From positions 19,606 through 83,605 of the forward strand of contig CAIQUZ010000037.1 in NCBI GenBank assembly GCA_903875135.1: a stretch of DNA of 64,000 nt, read 5' to 3'. The position numbers and the translations under genes are program-made. Positions 2,071 to 48,541 of the stretch are shown here, piece after piece. Each line of letters opens with the position of its first letter. Position 1 is the stretch's first letter. The notes under the pieces were generated by a model. That model was not told where the DNA came from. It did not search any database and saw only the letters and a program-made list of their open reading frames with translations. The DNA is from an uncultured beta proteobacterium (GTDB lineage: Bacteria; Pseudomonadota; Gammaproteobacteria; Burkholderiales; Burkholderiaceae).

Positions 2071-2084
2071 AACTGATAACCTTT

Positions 2085-2963
2085 TTATGTCTTCCAAAGT
2101 CGAAGTGGTAAGGGCACAATTCCCGATACTTCTAACCGATGCCGCAACCACAAATTAATAAAACAATCTTTTAAATATTCTACTTCCGAAGATACTGCAC
2201 GTATGATCATTAAACCATTTTTTTGAGGTAAATTAATTCTCGTCGCACCAACTCTGAGAGTATCCGACCATAGCAAGGAATCCCTGACGGATTCAAGCAA
2301 TTCTTCACTCACCCGATAGCCACAAAACCACATCGTGCCCATGACGGAATAAGAACCAAGTTTCGCCATTGAACGAATCGATACATCATCTGAATCTAAA
2401 ACGCTAGACTCAATCCAATATTGTCGATGATTCATAGAAAGTTGCAATTCATTTCTCAGGTGCGCGTCTGACCAAATTTCCCCACTAGCTGTTCTACCTA
2501 ATTGAGCAATATCCCACCCAATCATTGTGGAATCCTCCTCTAACTGAATATGGATGAAATTATAGGCATTGGATGAATTGAAATATATATTTTCTTGTGG
2601 CAAGAAGTCAAGATGACTTCCCGCAGCGATAGACAAGCGAGTTTCTTGAGAAGATAAATGCCCATTGGATTTGTACCATTTCGTAGCCCCAGGAGTCGTA
2701 ATCACCGCTTTAGCATTTGGATACGTTTTGATGTCAATCTTTAGGTGATCACCACCTGCAATACCTGCCGGAGGATGTAAAATAACGGCATGACAAACTT
2801 CATCCCCTTCTGGATAAAGGGATTTCTGAATCAGTAAAGGACCAACATGATCTCTTCTTGATAAAATGGTTTTGGACGACTGATCTGATTTTGTAAACTC
2901 TAAACGCAGACTCGCATCCCAGCGTTTGGGTATTTGAAGTGGCTCTACAGTTGCGGTTTCCAT
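2085..2963 (-). CDS. ureD: Urease accessory protein UreD
   Basis: [48 protein letters not shown] motifs. Confidence 0.95.
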
Positions 2964-2991
2964 CCGTGAATTATGGCAGATGAAAGGGTTT

Positions 2992-3684: not shown

Positions 3685-3686
3685 GA

Positions 3687-4535
3687 TTACCGACCCAAAT
3701 AAGATTCTATAACGAGGGAGTTACTTTTAATCTGTTCCATCGTACCTTCAGCCAATACAGCTCCCTCAGCGAGCACAGTGACTTTTCCATGTTCGCCAGA
3801 TAAGGCGCTCACAAACTCCATATCATGCTCAACAACCACAATCGAACAAGTACCCCTTAACGCATTTAACAAATCCACCAATTTCATCGTCTCTTCATCC
3901 GTCATACCGGCTACTGGCTCATCGAGCAACAATAGTTCTGGTTTTTGCATCAATAGCATACCAATCTCAAGTCGTTGTTTTTGGCCATGTGACAACAGCC
4001 CGGCTTCATCAAAGGCCTGCGCCTCCAAACCGACTTTTACGAGAGTCTCAGAAATTTGAAATTTTGTTTCAGCATCAATTTTGGCTGATAGTGAGAAACG
4101 CCAAGTTTTATCGGATTTTCTTGCTAACTCGACGTTTTCCCAAACTTTTAAATGTTCAAATACCGTCGGCTTTTGAAATTTTCGACCAATGCCAATTTGG
4201 GCGATTTTTGGCTCATTTAGTTTCAACAAATCAATGGTCTGCCCTAAAAAAACACTACCCGTCACATGCGCATTACGTGGACCTGTTTTCCCAGTTATCA
4301 CATCCATCATCGTCGTTTTACCAGCACCATTAGGGCCAATAATGCAACGTAATTCACCAGTACGAATATACAGATTTAAGCCATTAATCGCTTTAAATCC
4401 ATCAAAGGAAACCTGTAGATTTTCAATGTACAAAATATCGCCATGGGAACTATCTATTTTCCCTTTTTCATAAAAGTTTCCAGAGTCACGCTTTGCTGAA
4501 GCTACTGGTTCGAGAGATAATGTTTCGCTCATCAA
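3687..4535 (-). CDS. urtD: Urea ABC transporter ATPase UrtD
   Basis: VSFDGFKAIN, GPNGAGKTTMMDVITGKT, GIGRKFQKPTVFE, LLDEPVAGMTD. Confidence 0.95.
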   Translation of the reverse strand: MMSETLSLEPVASAKRDSGNFYEKGKIDSSHGDILYIENLQVSFDGFKAINGLNLYIRTGELRCIIGPNGAGKTTMMDVITGKTGPRNAHVTGSVFLGQTIDLLKLNEPKIAQIGIGRKFQKPTVFEHLKVWENVELARKSDKTWRFSLSAKIDAETKFQISETLVKVGLEAQAFDEAGLLSHGQKQRLEIGMLLMQKPELLLLDEPVAGMTDEETMKLVDLLNALRGTCSIVVVEHDMEFVSALSGEHGKVTVLAEGAVLAEGTMEQIKSNSLVIESYLGR

Positions 4536-5662
4536 GATTGATCCGTGATATTCGATGGTTTTTGCATAAAACGATCTTTGATAATGCCAACAATACCTTT
4601 AGGCAGATATAAAGTGACTACAACAAATAATCCACCTAAGATAAACAACCAATATTCTGGTGCTAGGCCGGTAAAGATGGTTTTAGCACCATTCACAACA
4701 AAAGCGCCAACAATAGGGCCAATTAAGGTCGCACGACCACCTACGGCCACCCAAACAGCTAACTCAATAGAGTTGGCAGGAGACATCTCTCCAGGGTTAA
4801 TAATACCAACTTGTGGAACATACAAAGCACCAGCAATACCACATAGAAAAGCAGAAAAAGTCCAAATAAACAATTTGTATCCAAGCGGGTCATAACCAGA
4901 AAACATCACACGATTCTCAGCATCACGAATCGCCATACACACCCTACCCAATTTAGACTGAACAATATATCGACAAACGATAAATGATAAGAGGAGTGCT
5001 GTAAAGCTAGCTAAAAAAAGGACCACACGCGTTGAGGGTTGGGTAATAGAAAAACCTAAAATTCTTTTAAAGTCAGTAAACCCATTATTCCCTCCGAAGC
5101 CTGTTTCGTTTCTAAAGAAAAGTAACATCGCTGCATAGGTAAATGCTTGGGTAATAATCGACAGATAAACGCCTTTAATTCTGGATCTAAAGGCAAAAAA
5201 CCCAAAAACAAATGCAATCAAACCGGGGATCAATAAAATGAATAAGAGCACTAACGGAAAATGATTCGTCCCCTCCCAGAACCAAGGTAATTGTTTCCAA
5301 TCAAGGAAAACCATAAAGTCGGGTAATTCTGAGTGATATACGCCCTCTGTGCCAATCGATCGCATCAAATACATGCCCATGATGTATCCACCAATCGCAA
5401 AAAATAAACTATGACCAAGACTTAAGATCCCACAAAATCCCCAGACAAGATCCAGAGCCAAAGCCGCAATAGCAAAGCACATGATCTTGCCAAAGAGTGT
5501 CAAAGAATAGGCGGACAAATGAAAGAAATTGCCCTCAGGTATAAAGAGAGCACAGAGCGGAACCAAAATATAAAAGGCTATGGCAAGCAAAATTAAACAC
5601 TTCCACCAAGTTTTTGACAGAATCGATTGTTGGGCTGGTAAATCAATATTAAAAGCTGTCAT
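4532..5662 (-). CDS. urtC: Urea ABC transporter permease UrtC (likely start ATG 5662)
   Basis: ALDLVWGFCGILSLGHSLFFAIGGY, ELPDFMVFL, FRNETGFGGNNGFTDF motifs; start lies 1 nt after the urtB stop. Confidence 0.95.
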   Translation of the reverse strand: MTAFNIDLPAQQSILSKTWWKCLILLAIAFYILVPLCALFIPEGNFFHLSAYSLTLFGKIMCFAIAALALDLVWGFCGILSLGHSLFFAIGGYIMGMYLMRSIGTEGVYHSELPDFMVFLDWKQLPWFWEGTNHFPLVLLFILLIPGLIAFVFGFFAFRSRIKGVYLSIITQAFTYAAMLLFFRNETGFGGNNGFTDFKRILGFSITQPSTRVVLFLASFTALLLSFIVCRYIVQSKLGRVCMAIRDAENRVMFSGYDPLGYKLFIWTFSAFLCGIAGALYVPQVGIINPGEMSPANSIELAVWVAVGGRATLIGPIVGAFVVNGAKTIFTGLAPEYWLFILGGLFVVVTLYLPKGIVGIIKDRFMQKPSNITDQS

Positions 5663-5663
5663 A

Positions 5664-7295
5664 TTAATTTTCTGCACTTCTACCCTTGAGGGCAAACATG
5701 CCTTGTGGGCGTTTTTGGATAAATAAAATAATCATGACGAGTAAACCAATCTTCGTCAGTACAGCCCCCATAAATGGCTCACTAAATTTACTCAAAATAC
5801 CCAAACCAAATGAACCAATAATGGTACCCGCTAGTTGTCCAACACCCCCAAGAACAACCGCCATAAATGAGTCAATAATATAGGACTGACCTAGGTCAGG
5901 ACCCACATTACCAATTTGAGATAAGGCACAACCACCTAAGCCAGCAATCCCTGCTCCAAAGGCAAATGCATAACTATCTACTCGGCGGGTTTTTACACCA
6001 ACACAACTTGCCATTGATCGATTTTGCGTGACCGCTCTTACAAAAAGACCCATTCTAGTTTTATTGAGAACTAACCAAGTCATAAAAACAATGGCTATAG
6101 CAAAGAAAAAGATTATTAAGCGGTTATAAGGTATTAGCAGTCCTGGAAAGAAATCTTGCAAAGGCGAAAAAGAACCACTCATCCATGATGGGTTACCGAC
6201 CTCCACATTCTGAGCACCAAAGACAACCCGAACAGCTTGCATCATTAACAAGCTCACCCCAAATGTTGCTAGAAGCGTTTCCAATGGGCGGCCATAGAGA
6301 TGGCGTAAGACTAAAAATTCCAAAATCAGACCAACAACTGCAGCCGATACAAAAGCGGCCGGAATCGCAAAAATTAAATAATAATCCTGATACTGCATGA
6401 AAAACGATCTAAAAATCGTCTGCACGATAAAGGTGGAGTATGCTCCCACCATTAAAAATTCACCATGAGCCATATTAATGACTCCAATTAATCCATAGGT
6501 AATCGCTAACCCAAGTGCGGCTAGCAATAAAATACTACCCAAGCTTAAGCCTGTAAAAATATTAGAAACAACTTCAGCCCGAAAACGGCGAGATTTAAAT
6601 TCATTGAGAGCCAACTCGATGGCTGGGAGAAGACTTTTATCTTTTTCAACGAAATTACCGGAGTCGTCTTTTTTCATTAAGTTCGCCAAAAAATTTTGTG
6701 CGCCCAATAAACTGGAGTTACCCAAAAGTTTTAGTAACTCTCGTTTTTTTGTTGCGTCTGCAGTTGCATAACTGACCATTGCATCTAAAGAAGCTAATTG
6801 CTTTTTAAGATGAGGATCTGTTTCAATCTCATATGCTTTTTTAATCAGCTCAGGCTTAATCTGACTAACATCATCGGATAAAGTATTCATCGCCTGAGTA
6901 CGAATCAGAAGATCTTTGGATAACAATTTATATTGACTAACGGCGGCTTCAATGTCAGATCGAATACTATTGTTTAATGTCGGTGACTCCAGTTTAGCCT
7001 CATCGACTGTTACGGTTATATTAGTAATGGCGTCCACATAAGCGTTTTTTACCTTCAGAACGACTAACTGATCAGTAGTCAAAAATACATTTTCATCTTG
7101 AAGAGCAAAGAAAATATTGGAAGCAATTTCAGGAGGTGCATCGACAACCTTTGCGACGGTCGATTGCTTCAGAGAAAAATCTTCCCCAAACAGATTTTTA
7201 AGATCCGCTTGAGAAAGATTGGATGCTAATACATAACTACTACATATAGTACTAATCAAAAAGCCAGATAATAATTTAAGCACAAGAATATTCAC
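5664..7295 (-). CDS. urtB: Urea ABC transporter permease UrtB with N-terminal periplasmic extension
   Basis: GLSLGSILLLAALGLAITYGLIGVINMAHGE, IIDSFMAVVLGGVGQL, IQKRPQGMF. Confidence 0.95.
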   Translation of the reverse strand: MNILVLKLLSGFLISTICSSYVLASNLSQADLKNLFGEDFSLKQSTVAKVVDAPPEIASNIFFALQDENVFLTTDQLVVLKVKNAYVDAITNITVTVDEAKLESPTLNNSIRSDIEAAVSQYKLLSKDLLIRTQAMNTLSDDVSQIKPELIKKAYEIETDPHLKKQLASLDAMVSYATADATKKRELLKLLGNSSLLGAQNFLANLMKKDDSGNFVEKDKSLLPAIELALNEFKSRRFRAEVVSNIFTGLSLGSILLLAALGLAITYGLIGVINMAHGEFLMVGAYSTFIVQTIFRSFFMQYQDYYLIFAIPAAFVSAAVVGLILEFLVLRHLYGRPLETLLATFGVSLLMMQAVRVVFGAQNVEVGNPSWMSGSFSPLQDFFPGLLIPYNRLIIFFFAIAIVFMTWLVLNKTRMGLFVRAVTQNRSMASCVGVKTRRVDSYAFAFGAGIAGLGGCALSQIGNVGPDLGQSYIIDSFMAVVLGGVGQLAGTIIGSFGLGILSKFSEPFMGAVLTKIGLLVMIILFIQKRPQGMFALKGRSAEN

Positions 7296-7309
7296 TGAAT
7301 AATCAGTGC

Positions 7310-8569
7310 TTATTTCACCTCATCTGGTTTACCTTCATTACCAGCAATGAATGGCGACCAAGGTTTCGCACGAATTGTTGTTGGGGTTTTCCAAACAACA
7401 TTAAACTGACCATCCGCTTTTACTTCACCAATCATGACAGGCTTATACAAGTGATGGTTATTACCCATCTCTAATGTAAACCCACTTGGTGCCGCCACTT
7501 TTTGACCATACATCGCTTTTCTAACCGCATTGACTTCAGTTGTTCCAGCTTTTTCAACTGCAGCCTTCCACATCTTCATACCAACAACAGTAGCTTCCAT
7601 TGGATCATTCGTCAGAGGCTTACTTGCCGTTGGTAAATTTTTAGATTTTGCATAAGCCGCCCACTCAGTCTTAAATGCATCATTGGCTGGATTTTTAACA
7701 GACATAAAATAATTCCATGCAGCAAGGTGTCCTACGAGTGGCTTTGTATCAACACCACGGAGTTCTTCTTCACCCACTGAGAAAGCTACTACTGGAACAT
7801 CTTTAGCCTTTAAGCCTGCATTGCCAAGCTCTTTGTAAAATGGCACGTTAGAGTCACCATTAATGGTGGAAATCACAGCTGTTTTACCACCTTGCGAGAA
7901 TTTTTTGACATCAGCAACGATGGTTTGATAATCAGAATGACCAAATGGTGTGTATTTCTCATCAATATCCTTCTCATCAACACCTTTTGATTTCAGGAAA
8001 GCTCTGAGAATCTTGTTGGTTGTTCTTGGATATACATAATCAGTACCTAATAGTACGAAACGCTTTGCACCACCACCCTCTTTACTCATTAAATACTCTA
8101 CAGCAGGAATCGCCTGTTGATTCGGAGCTGCTCCTGTATAAAACACATTCTTGGACATTTCTTCACCCTCATACTGCACAGGGTAAAACAGTAAACCATT
8201 GAGCTCTTCAAACACAGGAAGAACTGACTTACGTGATACCGATGTCCAGCAACCGAATACTACATCAACCTTATCTTTTGTTAATAATTGACGAGCTTTT
8301 TCTGCAAATAGTGGCCAATTAGACGCGGGATCAACCACCACAGGCTCTAATTTACGCCCCATAATTCCACCAGCCTTATTAATAGCCTCTATCTGCATGA
8401 GAGCTACATCTTTTAAAGCCGTCTCAGAAATCGCCATTGTGCCGGATAAAGAGTGCAAAATACCTACCTTAATCGGCGCCTTTGACTGTGCAATGGTTAG
8501 GTTTGAAAAACCAATCGTAGCTATTGCAGCACTAATGGCGGTTAATTTTAAAATTGATCTACGTTTCAT
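7310..8569 (-). CDS. urtA: Urea ABC transporter substrate-binding protein UrtA
   Basis: VGILHSLSGTMAISE, FGCWTSVSRKSV, FYPVQYEGEE, GTDYVYPRTTN. Confidence 0.96.
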   Translation of the reverse strand: MKRRSILKLTAISAAIATIGFSNLTIAQSKAPIKVGILHSLSGTMAISETALKDVALMQIEAINKAGGIMGRKLEPVVVDPASNWPLFAEKARQLLTKDKVDVVFGCWTSVSRKSVLPVFEELNGLLFYPVQYEGEEMSKNVFYTGAAPNQQAIPAVEYLMSKEGGGAKRFVLLGTDYVYPRTTNKILRAFLKSKGVDEKDIDEKYTPFGHSDYQTIVADVKKFSQGGKTAVISTINGDSNVPFYKELGNAGLKAKDVPVVAFSVGEEELRGVDTKPLVGHLAAWNYFMSVKNPANDAFKTEWAAYAKSKNLPTASKPLTNDPMEATVVGMKMWKAAVEKAGTTEVNAVRKAMYGQKVAAPSGFTLEMGNNHHLYKPVMIGEVKADGQFNVVWKTPTTIRAKPWSPFIAGNEGKPDEVK

Positions 8570-33194: not shown

Positions 33195-34595
33195 TTACTC
33201 ATTAAAAAAAGAAAGTATCCACTCGTTCGTTTTTAGCGGTAAGTGTGGATTCTTTTCTAACTGCTCGCCCAAAGACACAACAGATTTTTGTAGGTTGGGT
33301 GCTAAATCTTTAGATAATAAGGAGATCTTTTCTAAGACTGTATGACGTTCTAATGGTCTTGCAGAACTCCCTAGAGCTGCCTCACAAAACTCAGAAATCT
33401 TGTCTCCATTCTTTAATTCAATGGTAACTTTAGCAGGGCGATCATAAGGCCAAGGACGTACATCTTTCATTTCTTGCATCACCACTTTATTTCTGACATT
33501 GGCAATGAGAGAATTCGACATACTTTCATGTAAAAAATTTTCTGTAGCGCTTGCACCGTTAATAATAGTGGCAGCTACAGCATGAGGGATCGAAAACTTC
33601 GCCGCCAGGGTTGTGACAGGATTGACATTATTAAAGTTCATTCCCATTTTAGAAACTTCTATGAGTACAGAGTGAATCGTATCTCCTCCGCGAAGATTGG
33701 GATGTGCTTTAAAGATGGTTTCTATGGCTTCCATGGATGCATGCGCATGATGACAAGAACCATACAATTTATGATAGCCAGCAGTAATCGTCCATTCTGT
33801 ACCCAAGTCCATACAAAGCTGATCTGGCTTCGAAGTTGCTCCAAAACCCATCTGATAAACATCATATGGGCCAGTGGGTGTTCCGTAAATATTAGCTTGA
33901 GCCATCTCGCAAGCAAAGTGTCCTAACCAAGCGCCAGCTGCAGGCCAAGCATTTCGAATTAAGGCCCCTTGAATCGGATGACTATAAGGCCCAGGTGAAA
34001 CCATTGTGCAAGCACCAGTCAATGCATTCATGAAAAGTGTTTTATCAAATTTCATTAGAGCAGCATATCCAGCAGCCGCACAAACTGTATTAAATACCCC
34101 ATGAGGGTGCAACCTTGGTAAAGTCTCAGGCCAAGACCTTGCAAAGCGCGTTCCAATTTCATAAGCAACAACTACTGCCCTTAACATCTCTTGTACAGAT
34201 ATATCATTCGCTTGAGCAGCAGCTAAAATAAGGGGTTGACTGAGCGCCCCTGGATGGACTGCAGTTCTAGTGTATCCATCATCTAACTCGTTCCAAGTAA
34301 TCGCTAATCCATTAGCAAGCGCCGCATTCATTAAAGAAGTCTTTGGCCCACCCTTACGAAAAACTGTTGCTGTCTCATCACTTTTTTGACCCAATAATTG
34401 GCTGTGATAAGTATTTACTTCAGGTTCATTAGATGCAGATAAGGTAGCAGCAATGTTGTCACCCAAAATCAAAACAGCGTGTTGTATCACCTGATTTGGA
34501 ATATCCTCATAGCGAAGACTCGTTGCCCAATCTGATAACTTTAATAAATTTTCTGCAACACTATTTTTAATATCGAGCTGATTAACTACATTCAT
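33195..34595 (-). CDS. MmgE/PrpD-family protein (not clearly canonical PrpD); start ATG 34595 overlaps the upstream TGA
   Basis: ALANGLAITWNELDDG...VHPG, AVVVAYEIG, YHKLYGSCHHAHA, AKFSIPHAVA. Confidence 0.85.
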   Translation of the reverse strand: MNVVNQLDIKNSVAENLLKLSDWATSLRYEDIPNQVIQHAVLILGDNIAATLSASNEPEVNTYHSQLLGQKSDETATVFRKGGPKTSLMNAALANGLAITWNELDDGYTRTAVHPGALSQPLILAAAQANDISVQEMLRAVVVAYEIGTRFARSWPETLPRLHPHGVFNTVCAAAGYAALMKFDKTLFMNALTGACTMVSPGPYSHPIQGALIRNAWPAAGAWLGHFACEMAQANIYGTPTGPYDVYQMGFGATSKPDQLCMDLGTEWTITAGYHKLYGSCHHAHASMEAIETIFKAHPNLRGGDTIHSVLIEVSKMGMNFNNVNPVTTLAAKFSIPHAVAATIINGASATENFLHESMSNSLIANVRNKVVMQEMKDVRPWPYDRPAKVTIELKNGDKISEFCEAALGSSARPLERHTVLEKISLLSKDLAPNLQKSVVSLGEQLEKNPHLPLKTNEWILSFFNE

Positions 34596-36982
34596 ACTGT
34601 AACTTTTCTGAGTGCATGCCAAATTTTATTCGAGGTAAATGGCATTTCTACACCCTTCACACCAATCGAGCCCAGAGCATCGATCATGGCGCTGGTGATT
34701 GCCGCAGGGGCGCCAATAGTTCCCGATTCGCCACAACCCTTAACCCCTAAAGGGTTGTGTGTACATGGCTGAGATTCATCTGCCTCAGAAATAAAATCTG
34801 GCAATATGTCGGCCCTAGGCATCGCATAATCCATAAAAGAACCCGTCATGATTTGACCAGAGTCCGGCTCATAAACGGCACTTTCAAATAGAGCTTGGCC
34901 AATACCCTGAGCTATTGCGCCATGCACTTGCCCTTCAACAATCATTGGATTAATCACTGTTCCTACATCATCGATGGCTATGTAAGATAACAATTTCGTC
35001 ACACCAGTTTGTGGATCAATTTCTATTTCACAAGCTTGTGCTCCATTGGACCATGTTAAATTAGGTGGATCAAAAAAAGCATTTTCGTGGAGAACCGGCT
35101 CCATTCCAATCGGCAAATTATGAGCATAGGTAGCAGCGCGTGAAACCTGATACCAATCTAATTTTTCTTGCGTTGTTTTGCAAACGAAATGACCTAGGTT
35201 ATCAATAATCTGATGTTCCACATCGGCAACATCACAAGCAAGAAGGTGAGCCGCAAGTAATTTTGATTTATTCAAAATTTTCGTGCAAGACATCGTAATC
35301 GCTCCACCAGCAATCACCATTGATCTTGATCCAAAAGTTCCAGTTCCATATGGAACTCTGCCTGTATCCCCTTCAACTAACTCAATCATAGATAAAGGTA
35401 GCCCTATATGTGAAGCAATGACTTGCGGAAATGTCGTCGCATGTGCTTGACCATGACTGTGCGTACCACACATTAAAAGAATACTTCCATCGGCAGATAC
35501 TCGGATATCGGCCGAATCAAAAAAACCTGCCCGAGCGCCAAACATTCCGGCATATTTAGAAGGTGCGACTCCAGAACTTTCTAGAAAATAACAAATACCA
35601 AAACCGCGTATCATGCCATTTACTTTTGAAAGTGCACGACGTTTTTCAAAACCAGCAAAATCAGAAACAACAAGCGCTCTGTCAAATAGCCGTTGAAAAT
35701 CTCCACTATCGTAAATTGGACCTAACGGTGTAGAGTAAGGCATTTCACTCGATTTGATGAAATTTTTACGACGCAGTTCCATGCGGTCCATACCCGTTTG
35801 CACCGCAGCTTCTTCGATTAATCGCTCTAATACAAAACATGCTTCAGGACGCCCTGCGCCACGATACGCATCCGTTGGAACCGTATTGGTGAACATCGCA
35901 TCAACCTCTGCGAAAACTGCAGGAATCTTATAAGGACCAGATAAAACCGCAGTGTAAACCGTTGTTGGAACTGCCGCCCCAACAGTAGATATGTATGCCC
36001 CAACAGCAGCATAGGTCTTCACTCGAACACCTAAAATATAACCCTTGTCATCAAGAGCCATTTCCGCGGTGGTCATATGATCACGAGCTTGATAGTCACT
36101 AATAAATGCTTCACTTCTCGTTGAAGTCCACTTTACGGTGATCTTTAGTTTCTTACAAGCCCAGGCTAAAAGTGTTTCTTCAGGATATAACTTACCCTTC
36201 GTACCAAAACCACCACCAACATCAGGTGCAATTACACGTATTGAGTTTTCCGGTAGATTTAATTGCTCCGATGTGAGCTTGCGAATATGGTGCGGAACTT
36301 GTGTGGCGGACCAAATTGTGAGCTCATGACCATCATCTCCAAGAGAGGGAGATACCTGTGCAACAACAGCTCTTGGTTCGATGGCAGCACAAACAATCCG
36401 ATGATTTTTAATTTCTACACGAATCTGGTGCGCCGCCTTTGCAAAGGCAGCATCAACAGGCTCTTTAGAGCCACGGTGAAATCTTACACAAAGATTATTT
36501 GGCGCTTGTGAATGAAGCTGTGGGGCAGTTGCAAGTGCTGCTTTCTCAACATTGACTACTGCATCTAATACTTCAAAATCTACTTCTATCAATTCAGTAG
36601 CATCAATAGCTTGATGAACAGTCTTGGCGATGACCATCGCCACTATTTCACCAACGTGACGCACGCGATCCACCGTCATGGAATATCGTGGAGGTTCATT
36701 CATTTGCGTGCCATTTGCCCCAGGAATCATCCATAGTGGCGTCATCTTACCGACACCATCATTAAATAAGTCTTCCCCAGTTAACACAGCAATTACGCCT
36801 AGAGACATTTGCGCCGCAGAAACATCAATGCTCTTAATAAGTGCATGCGCGTGAGGCGATCTTAAAAAAGCACAGTAATATGTGTTTTCAGGAAGAATAT
36901 CGGCGACAAATTGACCACGTCCTTTTAATAGACGATTATCTTCTCTTCTTAAAACCGTTTTACCAATTCCTTGTGGATGCAT
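34592..36982 (-). CDS. Xanthine-dehydrogenase-family molybdopterin large subunit (form II CoxL-like)
   Basis: RREDNRLLKGRGQFVAD, DVGGGFGTKG, AYRGAGRPEA, HSHGQAHAT, GTFGSRS, GQVHGAIAQGIGQ, KGCGESG. Confidence 0.93.
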   Translation of the reverse strand: MHPQGIGKTVLRREDNRLLKGRGQFVADILPENTYYCAFLRSPHAHALIKSIDVSAAQMSLGVIAVLTGEDLFNDGVGKMTPLWMIPGANGTQMNEPPRYSMTVDRVRHVGEIVAMVIAKTVHQAIDATELIEVDFEVLDAVVNVEKAALATAPQLHSQAPNNLCVRFHRGSKEPVDAAFAKAAHQIRVEIKNHRIVCAAIEPRAVVAQVSPSLGDDGHELTIWSATQVPHHIRKLTSEQLNLPENSIRVIAPDVGGGFGTKGKLYPEETLLAWACKKLKITVKWTSTRSEAFISDYQARDHMTTAEMALDDKGYILGVRVKTYAAVGAYISTVGAAVPTTVYTAVLSGPYKIPAVFAEVDAMFTNTVPTDAYRGAGRPEACFVLERLIEEAAVQTGMDRMELRRKNFIKSSEMPYSTPLGPIYDSGDFQRLFDRALVVSDFAGFEKRRALSKVNGMIRGFGICYFLESSGVAPSKYAGMFGARAGFFDSADIRVSADGSILLMCGTHSHGQAHATTFPQVIASHIGLPLSMIELVEGDTGRVPYGTGTFGSRSMVIAGGAITMSCTKILNKSKLLAAHLLACDVADVEHQIIDNLGHFVCKTTQEKLDWYQVSRAATYAHNLPIGMEPVLHENAFFDPPNLTWSNGAQACEIEIDPQTGVTKLLSYIAIDDVGTVINPMIVEGQVHGAIAQGIGQALFESAVYEPDSGQIMTGSFMDYAMPRADILPDFISEADESQPCTHNPLGVKGCGESGTIGAPAAITSAMIDALGSIGVKGVEMPFTSNKIWHALRKVTV

Positions 36983-37108
36983 GTAATTCTCTCAATTAAT
37001 AATGGGACCTAAAAATATGTTAGCTTAATAACCTAAAGATTCAAAATAATGTTATCTTAGTTTTTATTTCCTCACAAGGAATTCCAAAATTTATAAATCG
37101 GAGCTTTT

Positions 37109-38077
37109 ATGAACTTCAAGAAAAACTGTTTAATCTCTTTAATCATATTGTTGCTAGCTAGTTTTTCGTCTTTAAGTATGGCCCAACAAAAAATGAAAAT
37201 GGGGCTTTTTATTGCATCTTCAGCTCTCCCATATTTTATTGCTAAAGAAAGAGGTTACTTTGCTGCAGAGGGTCTTGACGTTGAGGGAATACCCTTAGCA
37301 ACACAACCTTTGGTTGTTCAAGGAATTGTTACTGGTGATTTAGATGCTGGCTCTAACCTGCTCTCACTAGAAGGTGCAAATATCAACGCCTTGAGACCAG
37401 ATACATTGAAGTACATCTCTTTAAATTGTCAAAATGTAAAATATCAACTCGAAGCTTACGTCGTTCCAGTCAATAGCACTATTAAAACCTTAGCTGAGTT
37501 GAAGGGCAAACGCATTATGTCTGCCCCAGGCCCGGGTAACCTTTTTGTGGCAAAAGGCGTGCTTAAAGCAGTTGGTCTTGATGAAAAAGATTATCAGATG
37601 CAAGAACAACAAATGAGCGTTCACATTGGTGGTCTTCAGTCTGGTCAATTTGATGCCGCATATACTCTTGAACCGATCGTGAGCATGATGGTTTCTCAAG
37701 GAGTTGGTCGTAAACTCGAAAGTGGTGTAATTGCAAAATACATGCTTGGCAGACCCGATGCCTGTGCGGTACTTGGTGGTGGCGTTCTCAGTTCTAAATT
37801 TATCAAAGAATATCCACAAGCGGCAGAACGATTTGCTAGAGCATGGGCCAAGGCATTAAATGACGGTAATAACGATCCTAAGGCTCGCGATCTCCTAGTG
37901 AAGTATATGAATACATCAGCAAGCATTGCTCAAACTGTACCGCTATCTCACTACAACATGATCCGTGATTTAAAACCTCAAGATCTTGCTGACTTTCAGA
38001 ACTTAATTGATCAGGCAACAGCTTATGGGTTGGTCAAAGAAAAAATTGATGCTAAATCATTTTTAAAAGTCTATTAA
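37109..38077 (+). CDS. NitT/TauT (NMT1/SsuA-like) ABC substrate-binding protein
   Basis: Signal peptide; LPYFIAKERGYFAAEGLDVE, LAELKGKRI, GQFDAAYTLEP. Confidence 0.88.
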   Translation: MNFKKNCLISLIILLLASFSSLSMAQQKMKMGLFIASSALPYFIAKERGYFAAEGLDVEGIPLATQPLVVQGIVTGDLDAGSNLLSLEGANINALRPDTLKYISLNCQNVKYQLEAYVVPVNSTIKTLAELKGKRIMSAPGPGNLFVAKGVLKAVGLDEKDYQMQEQQMSVHIGGLQSGQFDAAYTLEPIVSMMVSQGVGRKLESGVIAKYMLGRPDACAVLGGGVLSSKFIKEYPQAAERFARAWAKALNDGNNDPKARDLLVKYMNTSASIAQTVPLSHYNMIRDLKPQDLADFQNLIDQATAYGLVKEKIDAKSFLKVY

Positions 38078-38083
38078 TATCCG

Positions 38084-38857
38084 ATGAGTTTGATGCCGTA
38101 TAAAAAATATCTGGAGCCTCTAGTTCCCTTAATTGGGGCTCTAGTTTTTGTCTTAATCTGGTGGCTTAGCACCACGTTAAAATTGGTAGATCCTTTCTTA
38201 TTGCCCTCTCCACTCGCCGCAGGAAAAGCAATGTGGACCGGCATAACCAGTGGGACCTTATCTCTCGATATGATCATCACGATCCGTCGAACGATTTATG
38301 CCTTTTTAATTGCTGTGGTGATCTGCGTTCCACTTGGACTTATTTTAGGTAGTTCTGAGCGTCTCTATCGATCCTGCGAATTTGTGATTGATTTCTTTCG
38401 CTCAACGCCTGCTTCAGCTTTATTCCCCCTCTTTTTAGTCATATTAGGTGTTGGAGAAAATACCAAAATTGCAGTAGCCGCTTTTGGCGCCGGACTTTTG
38501 ATTTTGTTCAATACCGCATACGGAGTCATGAACGCCAGAAAAGTACGGCAAGCTGCAGCAAGGGTCATGGGGGCCTCAAGCCTGAAGATTCTATATGGTG
38601 TAACTCTACTTGAATCACTCCCTCAAACATTTGTAGGAATGCGTTCCGGAATTTCCTTTTCACTAGTGATTGTGATTGTTGCAGAGATGTTTATCGGCTC
38701 TACAGATGGCTTAGGCCAACGTGTGATTAATGCTCAAATGATTTTTAATATGCCGGAAATGTACGCTACGATTTTTAGTGCCGGAGCATTAGGTTACGGA
38801 TTAAATCTTCTCTTCATTCTCGCGGAAAGACACTTCGTCCATTGGGGTGGAAAATAA
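38084..38857 (+). CDS. NitT/TauT ABC permease
   Basis: FLLPSP, DFFRSTPASALFPLF, LESLPQTFVGMR, IVIVAEMF. Confidence 0.9.
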   Translation: MSLMPYKKYLEPLVPLIGALVFVLIWWLSTTLKLVDPFLLPSPLAAGKAMWTGITSGTLSLDMIITIRRTIYAFLIAVVICVPLGLILGSSERLYRSCEFVIDFFRSTPASALFPLFLVILGVGENTKIAVAAFGAGLLILFNTAYGVMNARKVRQAAARVMGASSLKILYGVTLLESLPQTFVGMRSGISFSLVIVIVAEMFIGSTDGLGQRVINAQMIFNMPEMYATIFSAGALGYGLNLLFILAERHFVHWGGK

Positions 38858-38881
38858 ACGTGTATTTCCAAATTTAATTAA

Positions 38882-39649
38882 TTGATTATGACAGCACATA
38901 TCCAAATTCGTGGGTTGAGTAAAACTTTTGCTGGGCAAACGCTATATTCAAATTTTAATCTCGATTTTTCTCATGGGAAAATCACATCGATCTTTGGTCC
39001 GAATGGTTGCGGAAAATCGACGTTGATTAATATGATTTCTGGACTAACCCCAATGGATGCTGGAGAAGTTCTGTTTGATGGTAAAACCCTAGCTCAAACG
39101 GTTATCGGCTACGTCTTTCAAAACTACCGAGACGCTCTTTTCCCATGGAAAAAAGCCATCGACAATATCAAATATCCTCTCCAAATTGCAAAACAGTCTA
39201 TCGGTGAGATTGAAGCTAGAACCCAAGAATTAATTCAGTCGTTTGATGTCCGCTTTGATCTCAACCGATATCCCTACGAATTATCAGGTGGACAGCAACA
39301 ATTAATTTCCATTATGAGAGCTCTAGCTCCAAATCCAGAAGTACTTTTTTTGGATGAGCCATTTTCTGCACTCGATTATGAAATGACCCTGTTTATGCGG
39401 GATAAACTACAGGCGATTTTTGAAGCGACTAAAACCACCATGATTCTTGTCTCTCATGATCTCGATGAAGCAGTGTATTTATCAGACCACATTCTGATGT
39501 TGACTCGAAGGCCTACTCAAATCGCGCGTGAAATTGAATTTAATGCGCCAAGACCCCGTCAACCCCTCACTCTCACATCAGAACTATTTAATCAAGTAAA
39601 AGGTCAATGTCTTGAAATCTTCCAAAAAGAAATCAAAATAATCGATTAG
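38882..39649 (+). CDS. NitT/TauT ABC ATPase
   Basis: GPNGCGKST, VFQNYRDALFPW, YPYELSGGQQQ, LDEPFSALD, VSHDLDEA. Confidence 0.93.
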   Translation: MIMTAHIQIRGLSKTFAGQTLYSNFNLDFSHGKITSIFGPNGCGKSTLINMISGLTPMDAGEVLFDGKTLAQTVIGYVFQNYRDALFPWKKAIDNIKYPLQIAKQSIGEIEARTQELIQSFDVRFDLNRYPYELSGGQQQLISIMRALAPNPEVLFLDEPFSALDYEMTLFMRDKLQAIFEATKTTMILVSHDLDEAVYLSDHILMLTRRPTQIAREIEFNAPRPRQPLTLTSELFNQVKGQCLEIFQKEIKIID

Positions 39650-39682
39650 AATTAATTCATATTTTAAAAAAGGAGATGATCT

Positions 39683-40159
39683 ATGAGCATCCAAGTATCG
39701 ATGATCATTAATGGCCAATCTGTTCAACATGAAGTGGAAGAGCGAACACTCTTGGTAAATTTTATCCGCGATTATTGTCGCTTAACAGGCACTCATGTTG
39801 GCTGCGATACAGCACAATGCGGTGCGTGCACAATCCATTTAAATGGTCGAGCCATCAAAAGTTGCAGCATTCTAGCGATGCAAGCAGAAGGTGCAACTAT
39901 TACAACAATTGAAGGAGTTTCATCGGATGATCAATTACATCCAATGCAAGAAGCCTTTAAAACACATCATGGGCTACAGTGTGGCTATTGCACTCCCGGA
40001 ATGATTATGAGTGCGATTGACCTTGTCAATCAATTTCCTAATCCCAGTAAGGAACTCATCCGGGAACAACTCGATGGCAACTTATGCCGTTGCACTGGTT
40101 ATCACAATATCGTAATTGCCATTCAAGAGGCGGCCAAAGTTATGAGCCCTTCTAACTAA
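39683..40159 (+). CDS. Molybdenum hydroxylase small subunit (2x[2Fe-2S], CoxS-like)
   Basis: [15 protein letters not shown]...[19 protein letters not shown]. Confidence 0.94.
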
Positions 40160-40176
40160 ATTTCTCGGAGCGATTT

Positions 40177-40971
40177 ATGTATCCATTTTCATTTCATCAC
40201 ACTCAAAAAATTACTGACACTGTCTCTTTAAAAAAAGAATCTCCAGAGGGAAAATATATCGCTGGTGGTCAAAGTTTAATTGGGGTAATGAAGCTAAGAC
40301 TTGATAAACCGTCCGAATTAATTAACCTAGGATCCATTCCTGAACTTACCGGCATTTGTGTAGATGGGAAGACCTTAACAATCGGAGCAATGGCGAGACA
40401 TGCCGAAGTTGCCGCATCTGCTGATGTGAAAAATTGCATCCCTGGTCTATCCCAACTCGCGGGCCTCATTGCCGATAGAATGGTGCGCAATATGGGGACA
40501 ATCGGCGGCTCTGTCGCTAACAATGATCCTTCTGCGGATTATCCTGCTGGCTTGTTGGGATTAAATGCCACCATCATTACCAATCAACGTGAAATCAAAG
40601 CGGATGATTTTTTTCTCGGGATGTTTGAAACCGCTCTAGAGCCAAGTGAATTGATCCAATCGATTCGTTTTACAGCACCGATTCAATCTGCCTATGCTAA
40701 ATTCAAACACCCCGCCTCTAGATACGCCGTCGTCGGTGTTTTTGTCGCTCAATTTCCGGGCGAAGTCAGAGTGGCTGTCACAGGAGCCGGCGCATCAGTT
40801 TTCCGACTCACAGAAGTTGAAAAAGCTCTTTCTAACAACTTCTCTGCCAGTGCATTAGATCCAATACATATTTCTGCTGATGGGCTTAACTCAGACTTTT
40901 TTGCAGATTCAGAATACCGAGCCCATTTAATCAAATTAATGGCAATACAAGCAGTTAACCAAGCACAATAA
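40177..40971 (+). CDS. Molybdenum hydroxylase medium subunit (FAD, CoxM-like)
   Basis: [48 protein letters not shown]. Confidence 0.93.
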
Positions 40972-40988
40972 CTCTCTTAGGAATTGCT

Positions 40989-42083
40989 ATGTCAATTGAT
41001 GTCGTTAAAGTTGAAATTAAAAGTGTATCGGATGCCTCAGGGCTATTACAACATATAGAATCTGGAAGATTTAAGGCTGATGACGTCATCGCTATTATTG
41101 GAAAAACTGAGGGTAATGGTGGAGTAAATGATTTCACAAGAATCTTATCAGATCATGCTTTTCGAGACGTTTTATTGAAACACGGCACGCGGACTACAGA
41201 GCAGATTCGGGAAATCCCGATGGTTTGGTCAGGTGGTTGTGATGGCGTCATCACACCACATGCCACTATTTTTACTCAAGTTAACGATACTTCAAGTTCA
41301 AAAGAAAGTCGTCTAGTAATTGGTACAGCACTTAGCCCGCGTATTTATCCAGAAGATATTGGTCGTTTGTCAATGGTAGAAAAAGTGCGTCAAGGTGTGC
41401 TGTTAGCAATGAAAAATGCAGGGATTGATGATCCAAAAGATGTGCATTACGTGCAGACAAAAACACCACTGCTGACCATTGAATCTGTCCTTGATGCCAA
41501 ATCACGTGGAAAGACTCTAGCCTGCGAAGTTCACGACTCCATGGGTGTTTCCAATGGCACTACGGCCCTAGGAATTGCGGTTGCACTAGGCGAAATCTCA
41601 ATGCCAACAGAAGAAGATATCTGCGAGAATCACGCCTTGTTTTCTTCAGTAGCATCCTGCTCTTCTGGCGTTGAATTAGATTTCGCACAAATTGTTTTAC
41701 TCGGCAATAAAACTGGCGCAGGAGGAAAATTTAGGATCGGTCACGGCATTATGAGAGATGCTATTGATATCGATGGTATCTATGATGCGATTCGGTCCGC
41801 TGGCTTAACCTTACCTGAGCGCCCCAGAGCAAGCGACTTAAACGGCAAACTAGTTAACTGCTTCATTAAATGTGAGGCGGATCAAACTGGTAAGCTTCGT
41901 GGTCGTCGACAAATTATGTTAGATGACTCCGATGTGCATCATCATCGACACTCTAAAGCTGCCGTTGGTGGAGTAGCTGCTGCCGCGATTGGTGATCCCG
42001 CTGTCTTCGTATCTGTTGATGCTATGCACCAAGGTCCGCACGGTGGCGGTCCCGTTATCGCGATTGTTGATTTGGGGACTTAA
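40989..42083 (+). CDS. bar: Ring-opening amidohydrolase of the AtzD/barbiturase (Toblerone-fold) family, barbiturase-like
   Basis: [40 protein letters not shown] (Asn189 where cyanuric acid hydrolases have Arg), [36 protein letters not shown]; collinear end to end with Rhodococcus barbiturase as I recall it. Confidence 0.88.
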
Positions 42084-42092
42084 ACAGTTTTC

Positions 42093-42572
42093 TTATTGAT
42101 AGATTTTCTGATCAAAGAAACTCATACCTGCAATATAGCGGCTACCATCAGACATGTCCGGGAGTGGTCCCTTCTCGATTTTTCCTTCAAAGGTTAATTC
42201 GAGTTGGACACCGCTTGGATCATAAATAAATAGTTGCCAAATCGTCGTGTTCGGCACTAAAAATTCACGAAAAGGTAATTTCATGTCAATAAATTTTTGA
42301 CGGTACTCATGGTAACCCGAGCAAGAAAATGAGATATGATCAATCGCTGCAGTCCCTAATACTGTCTTACCATCTTCACCAAGCGCTGGTCCACCAGCGT
42401 AACAATGTAATATCGCTTGCCCACCAGGAATCGGAGCAGCAAGCCACGCTCCCGGAAAACCAAAGTCCGGACGATAAATATCAATCAAACCTAATACCTT
42501 AGTATAAAAATCTTTAGTTGCCTCTAAATTATTCGTTTTAACTGCAATATGAAACAAACCATTCGTAATCAT
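42093..42572 (-). CDS. VOC / glyoxalase-family metalloprotein
   Basis: FHIAV...FYTKVLGL, GAWL, LHCY, IDHISF, YDPSGVQLEL (His/His/His/Glu metal set). Confidence 0.88.
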   Translation of the reverse strand: MITNGLFHIAVKTNNLEATKDFYTKVLGLIDIYRPDFGFPGAWLAAPIPGGQAILHCYAGGPALGEDGKTVLGTAAIDHISFSCSGYHEYRQKFIDMKLPFREFLVPNTTIWQLFIYDPSGVQLELTFEGKIEKGPLPDMSDGSRYIAGMSFFDQKIYQ

Positions 42573-42585
42573 GAACTATTCCTGT

Positions 42586-42969
42586 TTAAATTTTATCGAT
42601 CAAACTAACATGGGCTGAAACAATTCTCCAACCTTCAGGTGTCCTTACCCAAGTTTGCGATTGACGCCCCAATTTTCCTGGAACAGTATCTCTTTCAAAT
42701 AAGGTATTCGCTGTTGCCAAGTCATTTCCAAAAGTAGTAATTACTGTTTTACTGATACTTCTTAATAAACCTTTCGACGGTCTTGCGGCTCGAAAAGCTG
42801 CTATTTCGTCAAAACCATATAAGTTTTCATTCATGCCATAACGGATAACTAATGGATTATTCCAAAATGAGTTATCTAAAACATCAATCTTATTGTGAAT
42901 CAAGGCGTCCTCATATTGATCAAAAAGAGCTTGAACTTCTGCGTGGATATTAGGGATGTTAATTTGCAT
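42586..42969 (-). CDS. AtzH/HpxZ-like (DUF3225, NTF2-like) protein
   Basis: FDQYEDALIHN...FW...IRYG..ENLYGFDEIAAFRAAR...GRQSQTWVR.PEGWRIVSAHVS. Confidence 0.9.
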   Translation of the reverse strand: MQINIPNIHAEVQALFDQYEDALIHNKIDVLDNSFWNNPLVIRYGMNENLYGFDEIAAFRAARPSKGLLRSISKTVITTFGNDLATANTLFERDTVPGKLGRQSQTWVRTPEGWRIVSAHVSLIDKI

Positions 42970-43193
42970 GGGATATTCTCAAATTCATTAGGTATTAATA
43001 GTTGATTCTAGTATAAGCCGAATAGAAATACGATAGCTCCCCTACGAATAAACCTCCATTGATTTTCTCCACAAAAGGCACTAAGCTCATCTTGAGTGAG
43101 ATATTCAGATAGAAATGGACAAAGCCTTGATCACCTAGTTCATCTGATCAATCAAATCTCTTCAATGACTTAAATAATGAATGGGGAACATCA

Positions 43194-46219: not shown

Positions 46220-48541
46220 CTACGCCTTGACTGGACCAAACTGTGGGGGAGGAACTCGTCTTTTAGAAGCTGCTTCATAAGCAGAAGCCACTCTGATTAA
46301 ACGGTCTTCCATTCCCGGCTCCACCCGAAATACCAAAGAAAATGGTAAGCCAGCACCTTCTAATTTTGTCGGGGTTTGGCTCGTTTTTCCGAGATATTTT
46401 TTTCGATCTTCAGATAACTCAAAAACTGCATCGTAGGCTATATCAACAAATCCCGCAGGCACTAAAACTTCCGTAAGTCCAGCATTGGGTCCGTACAGTA
46501 ATTCGTTACGAAGGTCAGTAATTTCACCAGGCTCATCAGGCCATCCAATCTTCGCAGGTGGCAAAGGCGTATGGAGCCTTACCAAAACATCAAGTTTGTT
46601 TTCAAGAATCACCATCATATCGACTCTTCGCAGTAGCTCTCTGAGCATAATGCGCTCATTAATCCCTTGTCTGCCACCTAAAGGATTCCTGGGATCCGTC
46701 GTCTCTTCCCAATTTTTAAAAGCTGATCGCTGATCATCACCCCAAAATTTGGAGCGTTGATTTAATGTCGGCCAATCGATGAGCGACTCTTTAAATCCAA
46801 GAACATTCCAATCCTGCGCTCGGCGACTCAAATATTGCTTGATGTGATAGCGAAAAGAGTTGGCTAATATTTGATGTTGAACTGTAGCAATCGTTAAATT
46901 TTGGGGTGGCTGGATATTGAGATCAGCCAACTCCACACAATAATCAATCGCCGTCATTTTTCCGGAGCCAAAGATTTTTCCTGGGGCAAATTCAGTCGGC
47001 ATAATTTGCTCAGCAAACTCAGGAAATACCGGCTGCCTGGCTTCATTTAATCGAAATAAAATATCTGGCATAAAGACTGGGACTAACCTTGCTAGGGCTT
47101 TCGTAAAATCAATTCCCATTTGTTCTATTGTGTTATCTCTTTGCCAAAGAGTATGCGATGACTCCACTAAAGTCGCACCAAGATGATTACCAAGTATCTC
47201 TTTAATCTCTAGGCTTGCCTTAGTAATGATCGGTTCTACTGATTTAATTCCGGGGTTTATCATGGATTCACGGATCACCCCAATACGGGTTCCTTTTAAA
47301 AGGCCCACGGTATTCCCTTTAATCACATGATCGAGATAGCGTGTTTGTAAGACAGAGGATCGCGGGACAGTTGTGTAGGGGTCTCTAGGATCGTAATACC
47401 CATTGTCATCATCTTTAAGCGCATCCAAAATACGTGTGCAGTCTTCCAAAGTGCGACTTAAGATTCCCGTTCGATCACAATAGATATCCGCACCAATAGC
47501 CCCACCATCAAAACCTAGCATTGCCTTATGGGGCAAAATCAATGCTAATGCATTATGGTTGGCAGGACCTCTTGTCGACATCCGTGTTTCTTCACCTAAA
47601 CTAGCCATCACCAAATTAGCACTAACCGATACGCCTGATCCCGAACTAGAACCTAAGGATGCTGAGCGCGTTGTGTCATAGGGATTCGATGGATTACCAC
47701 CCCAAGTAGAGCGTTGATAACCATGTACGGATGGCAAGATCTGGTGAGGTTGGTTTTTACCTCCTGGATCACCTGCACGACCGTTATATTCTGTCATGAC
47801 CGCTTTGGCGAAAATAATCGCCCCTTTTTGACGAAGCTGGTCGACTAAAAGATGATCTCTGGCCGGAAAGTCGATATCGTAAGCAGCATCACCACCTCCC
47901 GTAGAACGCATGTCTTTCGTATCAAAAGCATCTTTGAAGGAAAATGTCACGCCATATAAAGGTAACTTTTCAAGATCGGGTTGTTGGCCATACTGCGCAT
48001 CTAAAGCCGCTGCTTGCTCAAGAGCGTCCGGATATTGCCGAAATAATTCACACATCGGAGGAGCACCTTTAGGCAAGGGCCCTTTTGAAGGATGCAAATC
48101 ATAATCACCACGACAAGTAACTGATCGTTCTCCACGTAGATTAATCGTTGATAAAGCATTGAGTTGACCAGCATTGGGTTTGCCTACAATCATTCCGAAC
48201 TGTTGGTAAATACTAGGGTCTGAGGCGGTTGACTCCATTCTGCCAAACTCAATGTCTGGACCAATATATCGATCTAAGTTTGGCAATAACTTAGAAGCAT
48301 TTAAGGTCTCTTGATCAAACCGTATCGGCTGACCACCACGTAAAACACCTGTGTGAGCAGGAATTTGGCTACCATCCCTTGTCACCAGCAAGCTTGAGGG
48401 TCCATTAAACTGCCGTATACGAGCCAGATATTGCTGAACTACTGCCACACAACTGGTTCTCCCCTCTTGAATTGCAAGATGCAGATCTGAAATTGTTGCT
48501 TCTTCAACTTGAAAGGGAATATTAGACTGACTTTGCGACAC
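46220..48541 (-). CDS. Amidase-signature family protein, unusually long (773 aa)
   Basis: VEEATISDL, PLYGVTFSFKD (catalytic Lys), NPYD, GSSSGSG (cis-Ser), GEETRMSTRGPA (nucleophile Ser), C-terminal EDRLIRVASAYE.ASKRRVPP. Confidence 0.88.
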   Translation of the reverse strand: MSQSQSNIPFQVEEATISDLHLAIQEGRTSCVAVVQQYLARIRQFNGPSSLLVTRDGSQIPAHTGVLRGGQPIRFDQETLNASKLLPNLDRYIGPDIEFGRMESTASDPSIYQQFGMIVGKPNAGQLNALSTINLRGERSVTCRGDYDLHPSKGPLPKGAPPMCELFRQYPDALEQAAALDAQYGQQPDLEKLPLYGVTFSFKDAFDTKDMRSTGGGDAAYDIDFPARDHLLVDQLRQKGAIIFAKAVMTEYNGRAGDPGGKNQPHQILPSVHGYQRSTWGGNPSNPYDTTRSASLGSSSGSGVSVSANLVMASLGEETRMSTRGPANHNALALILPHKAMLGFDGGAIGADIYCDRTGILSRTLEDCTRILDALKDDDNGYYDPRDPYTTVPRSSVLQTRYLDHVIKGNTVGLLKGTRIGVIRESMINPGIKSVEPIITKASLEIKEILGNHLGATLVESSHTLWQRDNTIEQMGIDFTKALARLVPVFMPDILFRLNEARQPVFPEFAEQIMPTEFAPGKIFGSGKMTAIDYCVELADLNIQPPQNLTIATVQHQILANSFRYHIKQYLSRRAQDWNVLGFKESLIDWPTLNQRSKFWGDDQRSAFKNWEETTDPRNPLGGRQGINERIMLRELLRRVDMMVILENKLDVLVRLHTPLPPAKIGWPDEPGEITDLRNELLYGPNAGLTEVLVPAGFVDIAYDAVFELSEDRKKYLGKTSQTPTKLEGAGLPFSLVFRVEPGMEDRLIRVASAYEAASKRRVPPPQFGPVKA

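Follow-up and report, generated by a model that had tools for sequence, protein, structure and literature searches.

Two minus-strand open reading frames at positions 42093-42969 of a 64,000-nt stretch from an uncultured beta proteobacterium of the Burkholderiaceae (assembly GCA_903875135.1, contig CAIQUZ010000037.1) encode an AtzH-like protein and a VOC-superfamily metalloenzyme. We refer to the whole stretch as the window, and positions given without a contig name are positions in it. The two genes form the right end of a ten-gene block, extending from a PrpD-like gene to the AtzH-like gene (33195-42969), that also encodes a barbiturase-type ring-opening amidohydrolase, a molybdenum (Mo) hydroxylase and an importer. 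On balance, our analysis leans toward the AtzH-like protein being a member of the pathway encoded by this block and acting as a decarboxylase of a carboxylated ureide. The AtzH-like protein belongs to a known family, here in a genomic context that we did not find described; the more novel element is the VOC subfamily, which is constantly paired with a hydroxylase near ring-opening amidohydrolases.

The gene layout is exactly the one reported in a preliminary description of this DNA, which had recognized a two-gene AtzH-like and VOC unit whose end is 9 nt away from the stop of the barbiturase gene. The AtzH-like gene (42586..42969, 127 aa) is first in transcription and is separated by a 13-nt spacer from the VOC gene (42093..42572, 159 aa), whose stop is separated by 9 nt (42084-42092) from that of the convergent barbiturase-type gene. 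Family membership was defined by a match to PF11533 (AtzH-like, formerly DUF3225) over the curated cut-off, spanning the entire domain of about 125 aa. The AtzH-like protein scored 184.5 bits against this profile (cut-off 27) over domain positions 1-124 of 126, and is thus a member of the AtzH/TrtB/HpxZ family; it also matched the AtzH structure 6BJT over its full length (E 1.6e-41) and the HpxZ model NF033625 with 186.5 bits (cut-off 135). Since the latter score exceeds the cut-off, automatic annotation would name the protein HpxZ, and the name "oxalurate catabolism protein HpxZ" is probably wrong for this copy.

The pocket described for AtzH consists of the catalytic Tyr22 and Arg46 together with Arg63, Arg66, Arg73, Phe94, Arg96, Gln106 and Gln108 (PMC6219798). 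All nine residues are kept in the window protein, as Y19, R43, R60, R63, R70, F91, R93, Q103 and Q105 (adding 3 to the window residue number gives the AtzH numbering), and the same nine were identical in 21 other AtzH-like proteins, in every context examined; two divergent copies of the genus (34-37% identical) differ at one pocket site. A pocket that is identical in all contexts cannot discriminate between substrates. The source genome holds a single AtzH-like copy. The ratio of non-synonymous to synonymous substitution rates (dN/dS) was 0.05-0.10 for the AtzH-like gene and 0.035-0.10 across the AtzH-like, VOC and barbiturase-type genes, similar to the values of neighbouring cluster genes, and both the AtzH-like and VOC genes evolve under purifying selection.

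The VOC protein matched PF00903 with 30.1 bits (cut-off 20.6) and has a His/Glu metal site in paired beta-alpha-beta-beta-beta modules, which places it in the VOC superfamily. It belongs to a tight uncharacterised subfamily, whose members in cyanobacteria and in proteobacteria of other genera are 61-70% identical. Residues H8, H56, H79 and E125 were invariant in 28 sequences of this subfamily; H8, H79 and E125 align with the metal ligands of glyoxalase I, and H56 stands where E56 is. The structure model (predicted local distance difference test, pLDDT, 80.6) matched the fold of VOC proteins at probability 1.00, and a fold search of the PDB and a protein atlas returned generic VOC/glyoxalase-I-like matches only, with no functional lead. 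The window protein resembles E. coli glyoxalase I (GloA, PDB 1F9Z) and other small VOC metalloenzymes in fold (TM score about 0.55-0.66), and its H8, H56, H79 and E125 fall on GloA H5, E56, H74 and E122. However, its identity to GloA is about 26%, its subfamily carries a conserved C-terminal extension, and its genomic context is that of heterocycle hydroxylases, not of methylglyoxal detoxification. With no NCBIfam model over its cut-off and the first Glu ligand replaced by His, the protein falls outside glyoxalase I proper. The prediction of a complex between the AtzH-like and VOC proteins scored 0.02 against a mark of 0.32, which weighs neither way.

The left end of the block is a minus-strand gene for an MmgE/PrpD-family protein (33195..34622, 475 aa), next to that of the Mo-hydroxylase large subunit (34592..36982, minus strand, 796 aa; MoCoBD_1, MoCoBD_2 and Ald_Xan_dh_C). 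Divergent from the latter, the plus strand encodes an NMT1/TauT-type ATP-binding cassette (ABC) importer (37109..39649; binding protein, permease and ATPase, from profile matches), the small (iron-sulphur, FeS, 158 aa) and medium (flavin adenine dinucleotide, FAD, 264 aa) subunits of what is a three-subunit hydroxylase (39683..40971; Fer2_2 and FAD_binding_5), and the barbiturase-type AtzD-family amidohydrolase (40989..42083, 364 aa; PF09663, 464 bits). Among solved structures, the latter matched the barbiturase 5HWE with 496.6 bits versus at most 301 bits for cyanuric acid hydrolases. The spacer upstream of the AtzH-VOC unit (42970..43193) is the right boundary of the block. Between 41800 and 43400, promoter-like sites did not score above shuffled sequences, and terminator-like matches were set aside because they lie inside coding sequence.

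We surveyed 201 genomes of the genus (G numbers denote genomes and L numbers loci or contigs). An AtzH-like gene was present in 13 of them and an AtzD-family gene in six, and in all six the AtzH-VOC pair lies beside the AtzD-family gene, an adjacency that exceeds chance. Synteny mapping showed that the ten-gene block keeps both ends across at least four differing sets of flanks (window/G198/G173, G156, G033 and G066); in G156, G033 and G066, synteny with the first group breaks off within 42970..43193. The block of G066 is inverted relative to the window, its AtzH end facing the LysR gene that forms the left flank in the latter. The PrpD-like gene is syntenic with the block in every genome of the genus and in other genera. 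A sister lineage (G189 and the metagenome contigs L142-L145) has the block with the AtzH-VOC pair and without an AtzD-family gene, and no such gene was found anywhere in G189, G004 or G020. The 166-bp spacer of the barbiturase-less blocks showed no similarity to a barbiturase-type remnant, and insertion and deletion are indistinguishable there. The Mo-hydroxylase large subunit is intact in the sister-lineage contig L143 (795 aa). In G189 it is broken into five open reading frames (L103, 5856-8238), which reflects either a pseudogene specific to this strain or an error of assembly. As a separate observation, parC (topoisomerase IV subunit A) is the neighbour of an AtzH-like gene in the unrelated genomes G020 (L102, 9820-12578) and G478 (L132, 10390-13200); the two genes share a strand in one case and converge in the other.

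Confinement of the AtzH-VOC pair to the source genus was rejected once the VOC protein, used as query, revealed other architectures. In a Mo-hydroxylase type, found without AtzH in several genera, the genes for the importer and for the small and medium subunits diverge from the PrpD-like and large-subunit genes, and the VOC gene is convergent on the medium subunit or directly follows it. Three loci of this type (L222-L224, from G590, G356 and G440) have, just past the PrpD-like gene, genes for a FAD monooxygenase and a cyanuric-acid-hydrolase-like AtzD-family protein, and so hold both kinds of hydroxylase. In a FAD-monooxygenase type (L163, L174, L176, L179, L188, L190, L202, L215, L218 and L124) the order is cyanuric-acid-hydrolase-like gene, optional amidase, FAD_binding_3 monooxygenase, VOC, NMT1-type importer and optional AtzH-like gene, with an importer binding protein 39-57% identical to that of the window. 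The operon of L124 (Aquabacterium sp. J223, CP088297.1) is without an AtzH-like gene, and its AtzD-family member scored 305 bits against cyanuric acid hydrolases versus 234 against barbiturase.

AtzH-like and VOC-subfamily genes shared one locus in 11 of the 75 metagenome loci outside the two block types of the genus. In nine of these, VOC is followed by binding protein, ATPase, permease and AtzH, in that order; a cyanuric-acid-hydrolase-like gene (with or without an amidase) and a FAD monooxygenase lie upstream in seven of the nine, and the left side is cut off in the other two. AtzH directly precedes VOC in the remaining two of the 11. Comamonas sp. CAH-2 (L125, VSWF01000031.1, 2100-7513) carries a canonical cyanuric acid operon that ends in VOC (atzD-atzF-atzG-atzE-atzH-VOC), followed by transposase and replicase genes; its VOC protein is of the same subfamily (65% identical) and is indexed in 62 collection blocks, and 23 contigs carrying it were examined. 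The metagenome locus L219 has the order atzG-atzE-atzH-VOC, and G478 the order Bmp-type importer, VOC, AtzH. In the cyanobacterium Leptolyngbya ohadii (L225, NKFP01000001.1, 6691-8510), the gene for a FAD monooxygenase shares 7 nt with the VOC gene, and AtzD-family, importer and AtzH genes are absent from the 8 kb on either side; the two may represent a minimal hydroxylase-VOC pair.

Co-occurrence was also examined at the genome level in a sample of 400 genomes of the order. An AtzH-like gene was present in 25 of the 25 AtzD-family-positive genomes (nine genera) versus 33 of the 375 others, and 14 of the 15 VOC-positive genomes hold both AtzD-family and AtzH-like genes; since the sampled genomes are related, these counts overstate independence. 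AtzD and AtzH within 20 kb of each other were rare (2/25 AtzD-family-positive genomes). The tie between the pair and the barbiturase cluster proposed in the preliminary description thus holds, through the conserved block ends, the recurrence in other architectures and the genome-level co-occurrence. The idea of a dedicated AtzH/VOC pair does not, because the VOC gene is the core partner of the hydroxylase and is widespread without AtzH. The VOC protein is a core enzyme tied to the ring hydroxylase, and the AtzH-like and barbiturase-type genes are lineage-specific additions.

We scanned relatives of the barbiturase-type gene using one genome per species and obtained 80 loci. Four are from the same genus (90-96% identical), and only these carry AtzH and VOC; the 76 others (72-80% identical) are mostly from Alphaproteobacteria. 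In 36 of the 76 (L005-L080), a conserved amidase-signature amidase of about 473 aa comes after the barbiturase-type gene or its importer (for example L019:9088-10509 and L047:11104-12513), and any amidase-like match within 12 kb was found in 43. This barbiturase-linked amidase is generic PRK07486-like and not AtzE-class, and the closest match in the source genome is 32% identical to it. We infer that it is a better ureidomalonase candidate than the AtzH-like protein. Hydantoinase A/B-like gene pairs (oxoprolinase or caprolactamase type) lie directly upstream of the barbiturase-type gene in 20-24 loci (for example L043:8070-9956 and L031:5960-8080), which points to ring opening or carboxylation driven by ATP in those clusters, and a RutB/BiuH-like isochorismatase is present in 6/76 loci. 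The convergent layout of barbiturase-type and VOC genes seen in the window recurs on one short contig (L220), at 72% and 61% identity.

At 46220-48541, 3.2 kb from the pair and outside the conserved block, the window encodes a protein of 773 aa in which an amidase domain is partly present. We considered it as the missing amidase and rejected it: the gene is not in the flank of G156 or G033 and lies on other contigs in genomes of the genus. It is kept at 74-81% identity in 5/5 genus genomes tested, including two (G004 and G189) without any AtzD-family gene, and is a general gene of the genus, not a pathway gene.

The source assembly is of 2.7 Mb and 92.8% complete, and genome-level negatives hold for it as assembled. 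The preliminary description had noted no adjacent atzE/atzG or hpxW/hpxY partners, and for AtzE and AtzG our searches agree with it (HpxW was not searched). The best TIGR02715 (AtzE) score in the source genome was 250 bits against a cut-off of 425.75, and five other genus genomes with AtzH-like genes likewise had no AtzE over the cut-off. PF13318 (AtzG-like) had zero matches in the source genome, a weak negative since the control was also silent, and no allophanate hydrolase (AtzF) scored over the cut-off there. In the strict sense, an AtzH or HpxZ has alongside it an AtzG/AtzE or HpxX/HpxY amidase pair that produces its N-carboxylated substrate, and with its best AtzE score this far below the cut-off the window gene stands apart from both.

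Beyond sequence and pocket, the window protein resembles AtzH of Pseudomonas sp. ADP (PDB 6BJT/6BJU/6D63) in having an adjoining AtzD-family gene. It differs from it in that the AtzE, AtzG and AtzF partners are missing over cut-off, with the reservation already made for AtzG, and in that the gene is paired with VOC inside a Mo-hydroxylase/importer block. HpxZ of the Klebsiella hpxWXYZ cluster is matched well by the profile score, but the window gene is without hpxX/hpxY (AtzG/AtzE-like) neighbours, and no purine or allantoin genes were noticed in the block. The role of AtzH itself, a decarboxylating 1,3-dicarboxyurea amidohydrolase, was deduced by reconstituting the pathway and not from direct measurement, and its pocket binds 1,3-dicarboxyacetone, a C-carboxylate analogue (PMC6219798). 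TrtB is treated here as a homologue of AtzH and HpxZ, on the basis of PMC7948467 and PMC12625717 (Fig. S11). It is reported to decarboxylate 1-carboxybiuret, the direct product of cyanuric acid hydrolase, to biuret without AtzE (PMC7948467; PMC12625717, Fig. S11), and to co-occur with AtzD and TrtA (PMC7948467). All three studied family members (TrtB, AtzH and HpxZ) have been reported to act as decarboxylases on N-carboxyl groups and not as hydrolases of an internal acyl-urea bond (PMC6219798, PMC7948467, PMC12625717).

TrtB of Herbaspirillum (Aukema et al. 2020, as cited in PMC7948467) is alike in family (about 126 aligned positions) and acts directly on the ring-opened or hydrolysed product of an AtzD-family enzyme or TrtA without AtzE. 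TrtB is found alongside a biuret hydrolase and an allophanate hydrolase, often together with a Bmp-type importer, and in the source genome no allophanate hydrolase scored over the cut-off. Moreover, the partner in the window is of barbiturase type, with a product that carries a C-bound and not an N-bound carboxyl, and the window protein groups with AtzE-linked copies in a tree that held no TrtB reference sequence. Ureidomalonate, the barbiturase product, is isosteric with 1-carboxybiuret, with CH2 in place of NH. The substrate analogy drawn in the preliminary description finds a precedent in the literature that was not cited there: TrtB acts on 1-carboxybiuret, of which ureidomalonate is an isostere. 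The proposed hydrolysis to urea and malonate does not fare as well, since the family is reported as decarboxylases and release of these two products is not expected from it.

As we read it, the ten-gene block would degrade a pyrimidine-like cyclic ureide. The VOC protein would act on the hydroxylated ring or its immediate product, and the AtzH-like protein would remove CO2 from a carboxylated acyl-urea formed after ring opening, possibly as an accessory that accelerates a step otherwise slow or dead-ended. Both the chemistry and the substrate of the AtzH-like protein are what we infer here from family and context. A tentative choice of substrate is ureidomalonate, which would be converted to acetylurea and CO2, and this C-decarboxylation possibly replaces the classical ureidomalonase step. 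Slightly more doubtful is an N-carboxylated ring-opened product of the hydroxylase/VOC branch, and N-carboxymalonamate, which would arise if an unlinked amidase deamidated ureidomalonate, is improbable.

Several observations weigh against a decarboxylase acting in this pathway. A small tree groups the window protein with AtzE-linked copies in a clade (support 99/94) that excludes the AtzE-free copies of VOC clusters. Its clade-mates outside the genus adjoin AtzE, and their reported substrate is the dicarboxylate made by AtzE, an enzyme class of which no amidase scored over the cut-off in six genus genomes. The AtzH-VOC pair is kept in the sister lineage without an AtzD-family gene, which speaks against ureidomalonate as the sole role and undercuts the earlier proposal that the AtzH-like protein carries out the step on the barbiturase product. 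AtzH-like genes 78-88% identical also occur in unrelated contexts in G004 and G020. The co-occurrence of DUF3225 with barbiturase-type genes, suggested in the preliminary description as a check, failed outside the genus: in 0/76 loci was AtzH or VOC found within 10 kb, even at relaxed thresholds. An AtzH-like gene was present anywhere in 5/10 genomes with such loci, never adjacent, so barbiturase-type enzymes do not generally have an AtzH-like protein as partner. The pair and the barbiturase-type gene are on opposite strands and hence are not co-transcribed. Finally, we know of no reported C-decarboxylation of a malonyl group in the family.

The step proposed in the preliminary description, in which the AtzH-like protein, alone or with the VOC protein, would be the missing ureidomalonase and convert ureidomalonate to urea and malonate, is very unlikely in our view. 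It would place the protein directly after barbiturase, at the same step as the ureidomalonase of Rhodococcus erythropolis JCM 3132 (EC 3.5.1.95), which hydrolyses 3-oxo-3-ureidopropanoate to urea and malonate and which is known as an activity only (Soong et al. 2001, cited in PMC3758960). The block is without an amidase, in contrast to the 36/76 barbiturase-type loci with a conserved one, and the best match in its own genome is only 32% identical, both of which favour this proposal. Both products would also be usable: about 34 kb from the block, the window (3-8569) carries a urea ABC importer (urtA, urtB and others) and the first part of a urease operon with its beta and alpha subunits, so that urea from any route could be used, and a malonyl-CoA decarboxylase gene is present elsewhere in the source genome. 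The likeness of ureidomalonate to the known substrates of the family points the same way. It is opposed by the decarboxylase chemistry of the studied family members, by a pocket that is the same as that of AtzH, by the retention of the AtzH-like gene where no AtzD-family gene exists, and by its absence near any of the 76 barbiturase-type loci.

The persistence of the AtzH-VOC pair in AtzD-less blocks would be accounted for by a branch independent of the barbiturase, in which the VOC protein, as a dioxygenase or isomerase, opens or rearranges the hydroxylated pyrimidine with O2, the AtzH-like protein decarboxylates the resulting N-carboxylated acyl-urea, and the barbiturase-type enzyme is a parallel hydrolytic route. 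We hold this to be unlikely. The VOC subfamily would then be a new ring-processing enzyme, cleaving or rearranging a hydroxylated pyrimidine without an AtzD-type hydrolase while the AtzH-like protein trims the N-carboxylated acyl-urea, a proposal as doubtful as that of an undescribed oxidative pyrimidine route, made up of the two proteins, beside or instead of the barbiturase route. Such a branch is consistent with the stop/start overlap of FAD monooxygenase and VOC genes in Leptolyngbya, where no AtzD-family gene lies within 8 kb on either side, with the VOC genes adjoining the Mo-hydroxylase medium subunit in several genera, with the complete and invariant metal ligands (three His, one Glu), and with AtzH directly adjoining VOC in four architectures independent of one another (this genus; Comamonas CAH-2 and L219; L213; G478). 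But a pyrimidine ring cleaved by a VOC enzyme would be without biochemical precedent, the fold matches are only generic glyoxalase-I-like ones, AtzH is missing from most VOC loci, and the VOC gene of Comamonas CAH-2 stands in an operon for cyanuric acid, which has no C-C bond to cleave. The AtzH-like gene might instead have no link with the pathway, its product being a scavenger of unstable N-carboxy ureides or the gene a leftover of an AtzG-AtzE-AtzH module at the block edge; this we consider a little less probable again. The close copies in unrelated contexts fit such an origin, as do the nearest relative outside the genus (75% identical), which is a solitary gene, the next-nearest ones (70-71%), which lie in AtzF/G-AtzE-AtzH modules, and the position at the block edge in a transcription unit separate from the other genes and shared with VOC. 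Against it stand the linkage to the block in 6/6 barbiturase-positive genomes of the genus, in G189 and in contigs L141-L145, across changing flanks, the independent association with both the VOC subfamily and AtzD-family genes that other architectures show, and the strong purifying selection on the AtzH-like gene. We thus retain a pathway decarboxylase as the reading toward which the evidence leans.

Biochemically, the oxidative pathway for pyrimidines has been known since the 1950s. In the searchable literature we found no gene or sequence for ureidomalonase and no gene assignment for uracil/thymine dehydrogenase. The block and its related clusters provide a compact candidate gene set for this pathway, and AtzH-like and VOC genes are found repeatedly with ring-opening amidohydrolases, of the cyanurate as well as the barbiturate type. 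Should the AtzH-like protein act on ureidomalonate, the chemistry of its family would extend from N-carboxyl to C-carboxyl groups, and if the VOC protein processes the ring, it would represent a new reaction in nucleobase breakdown.

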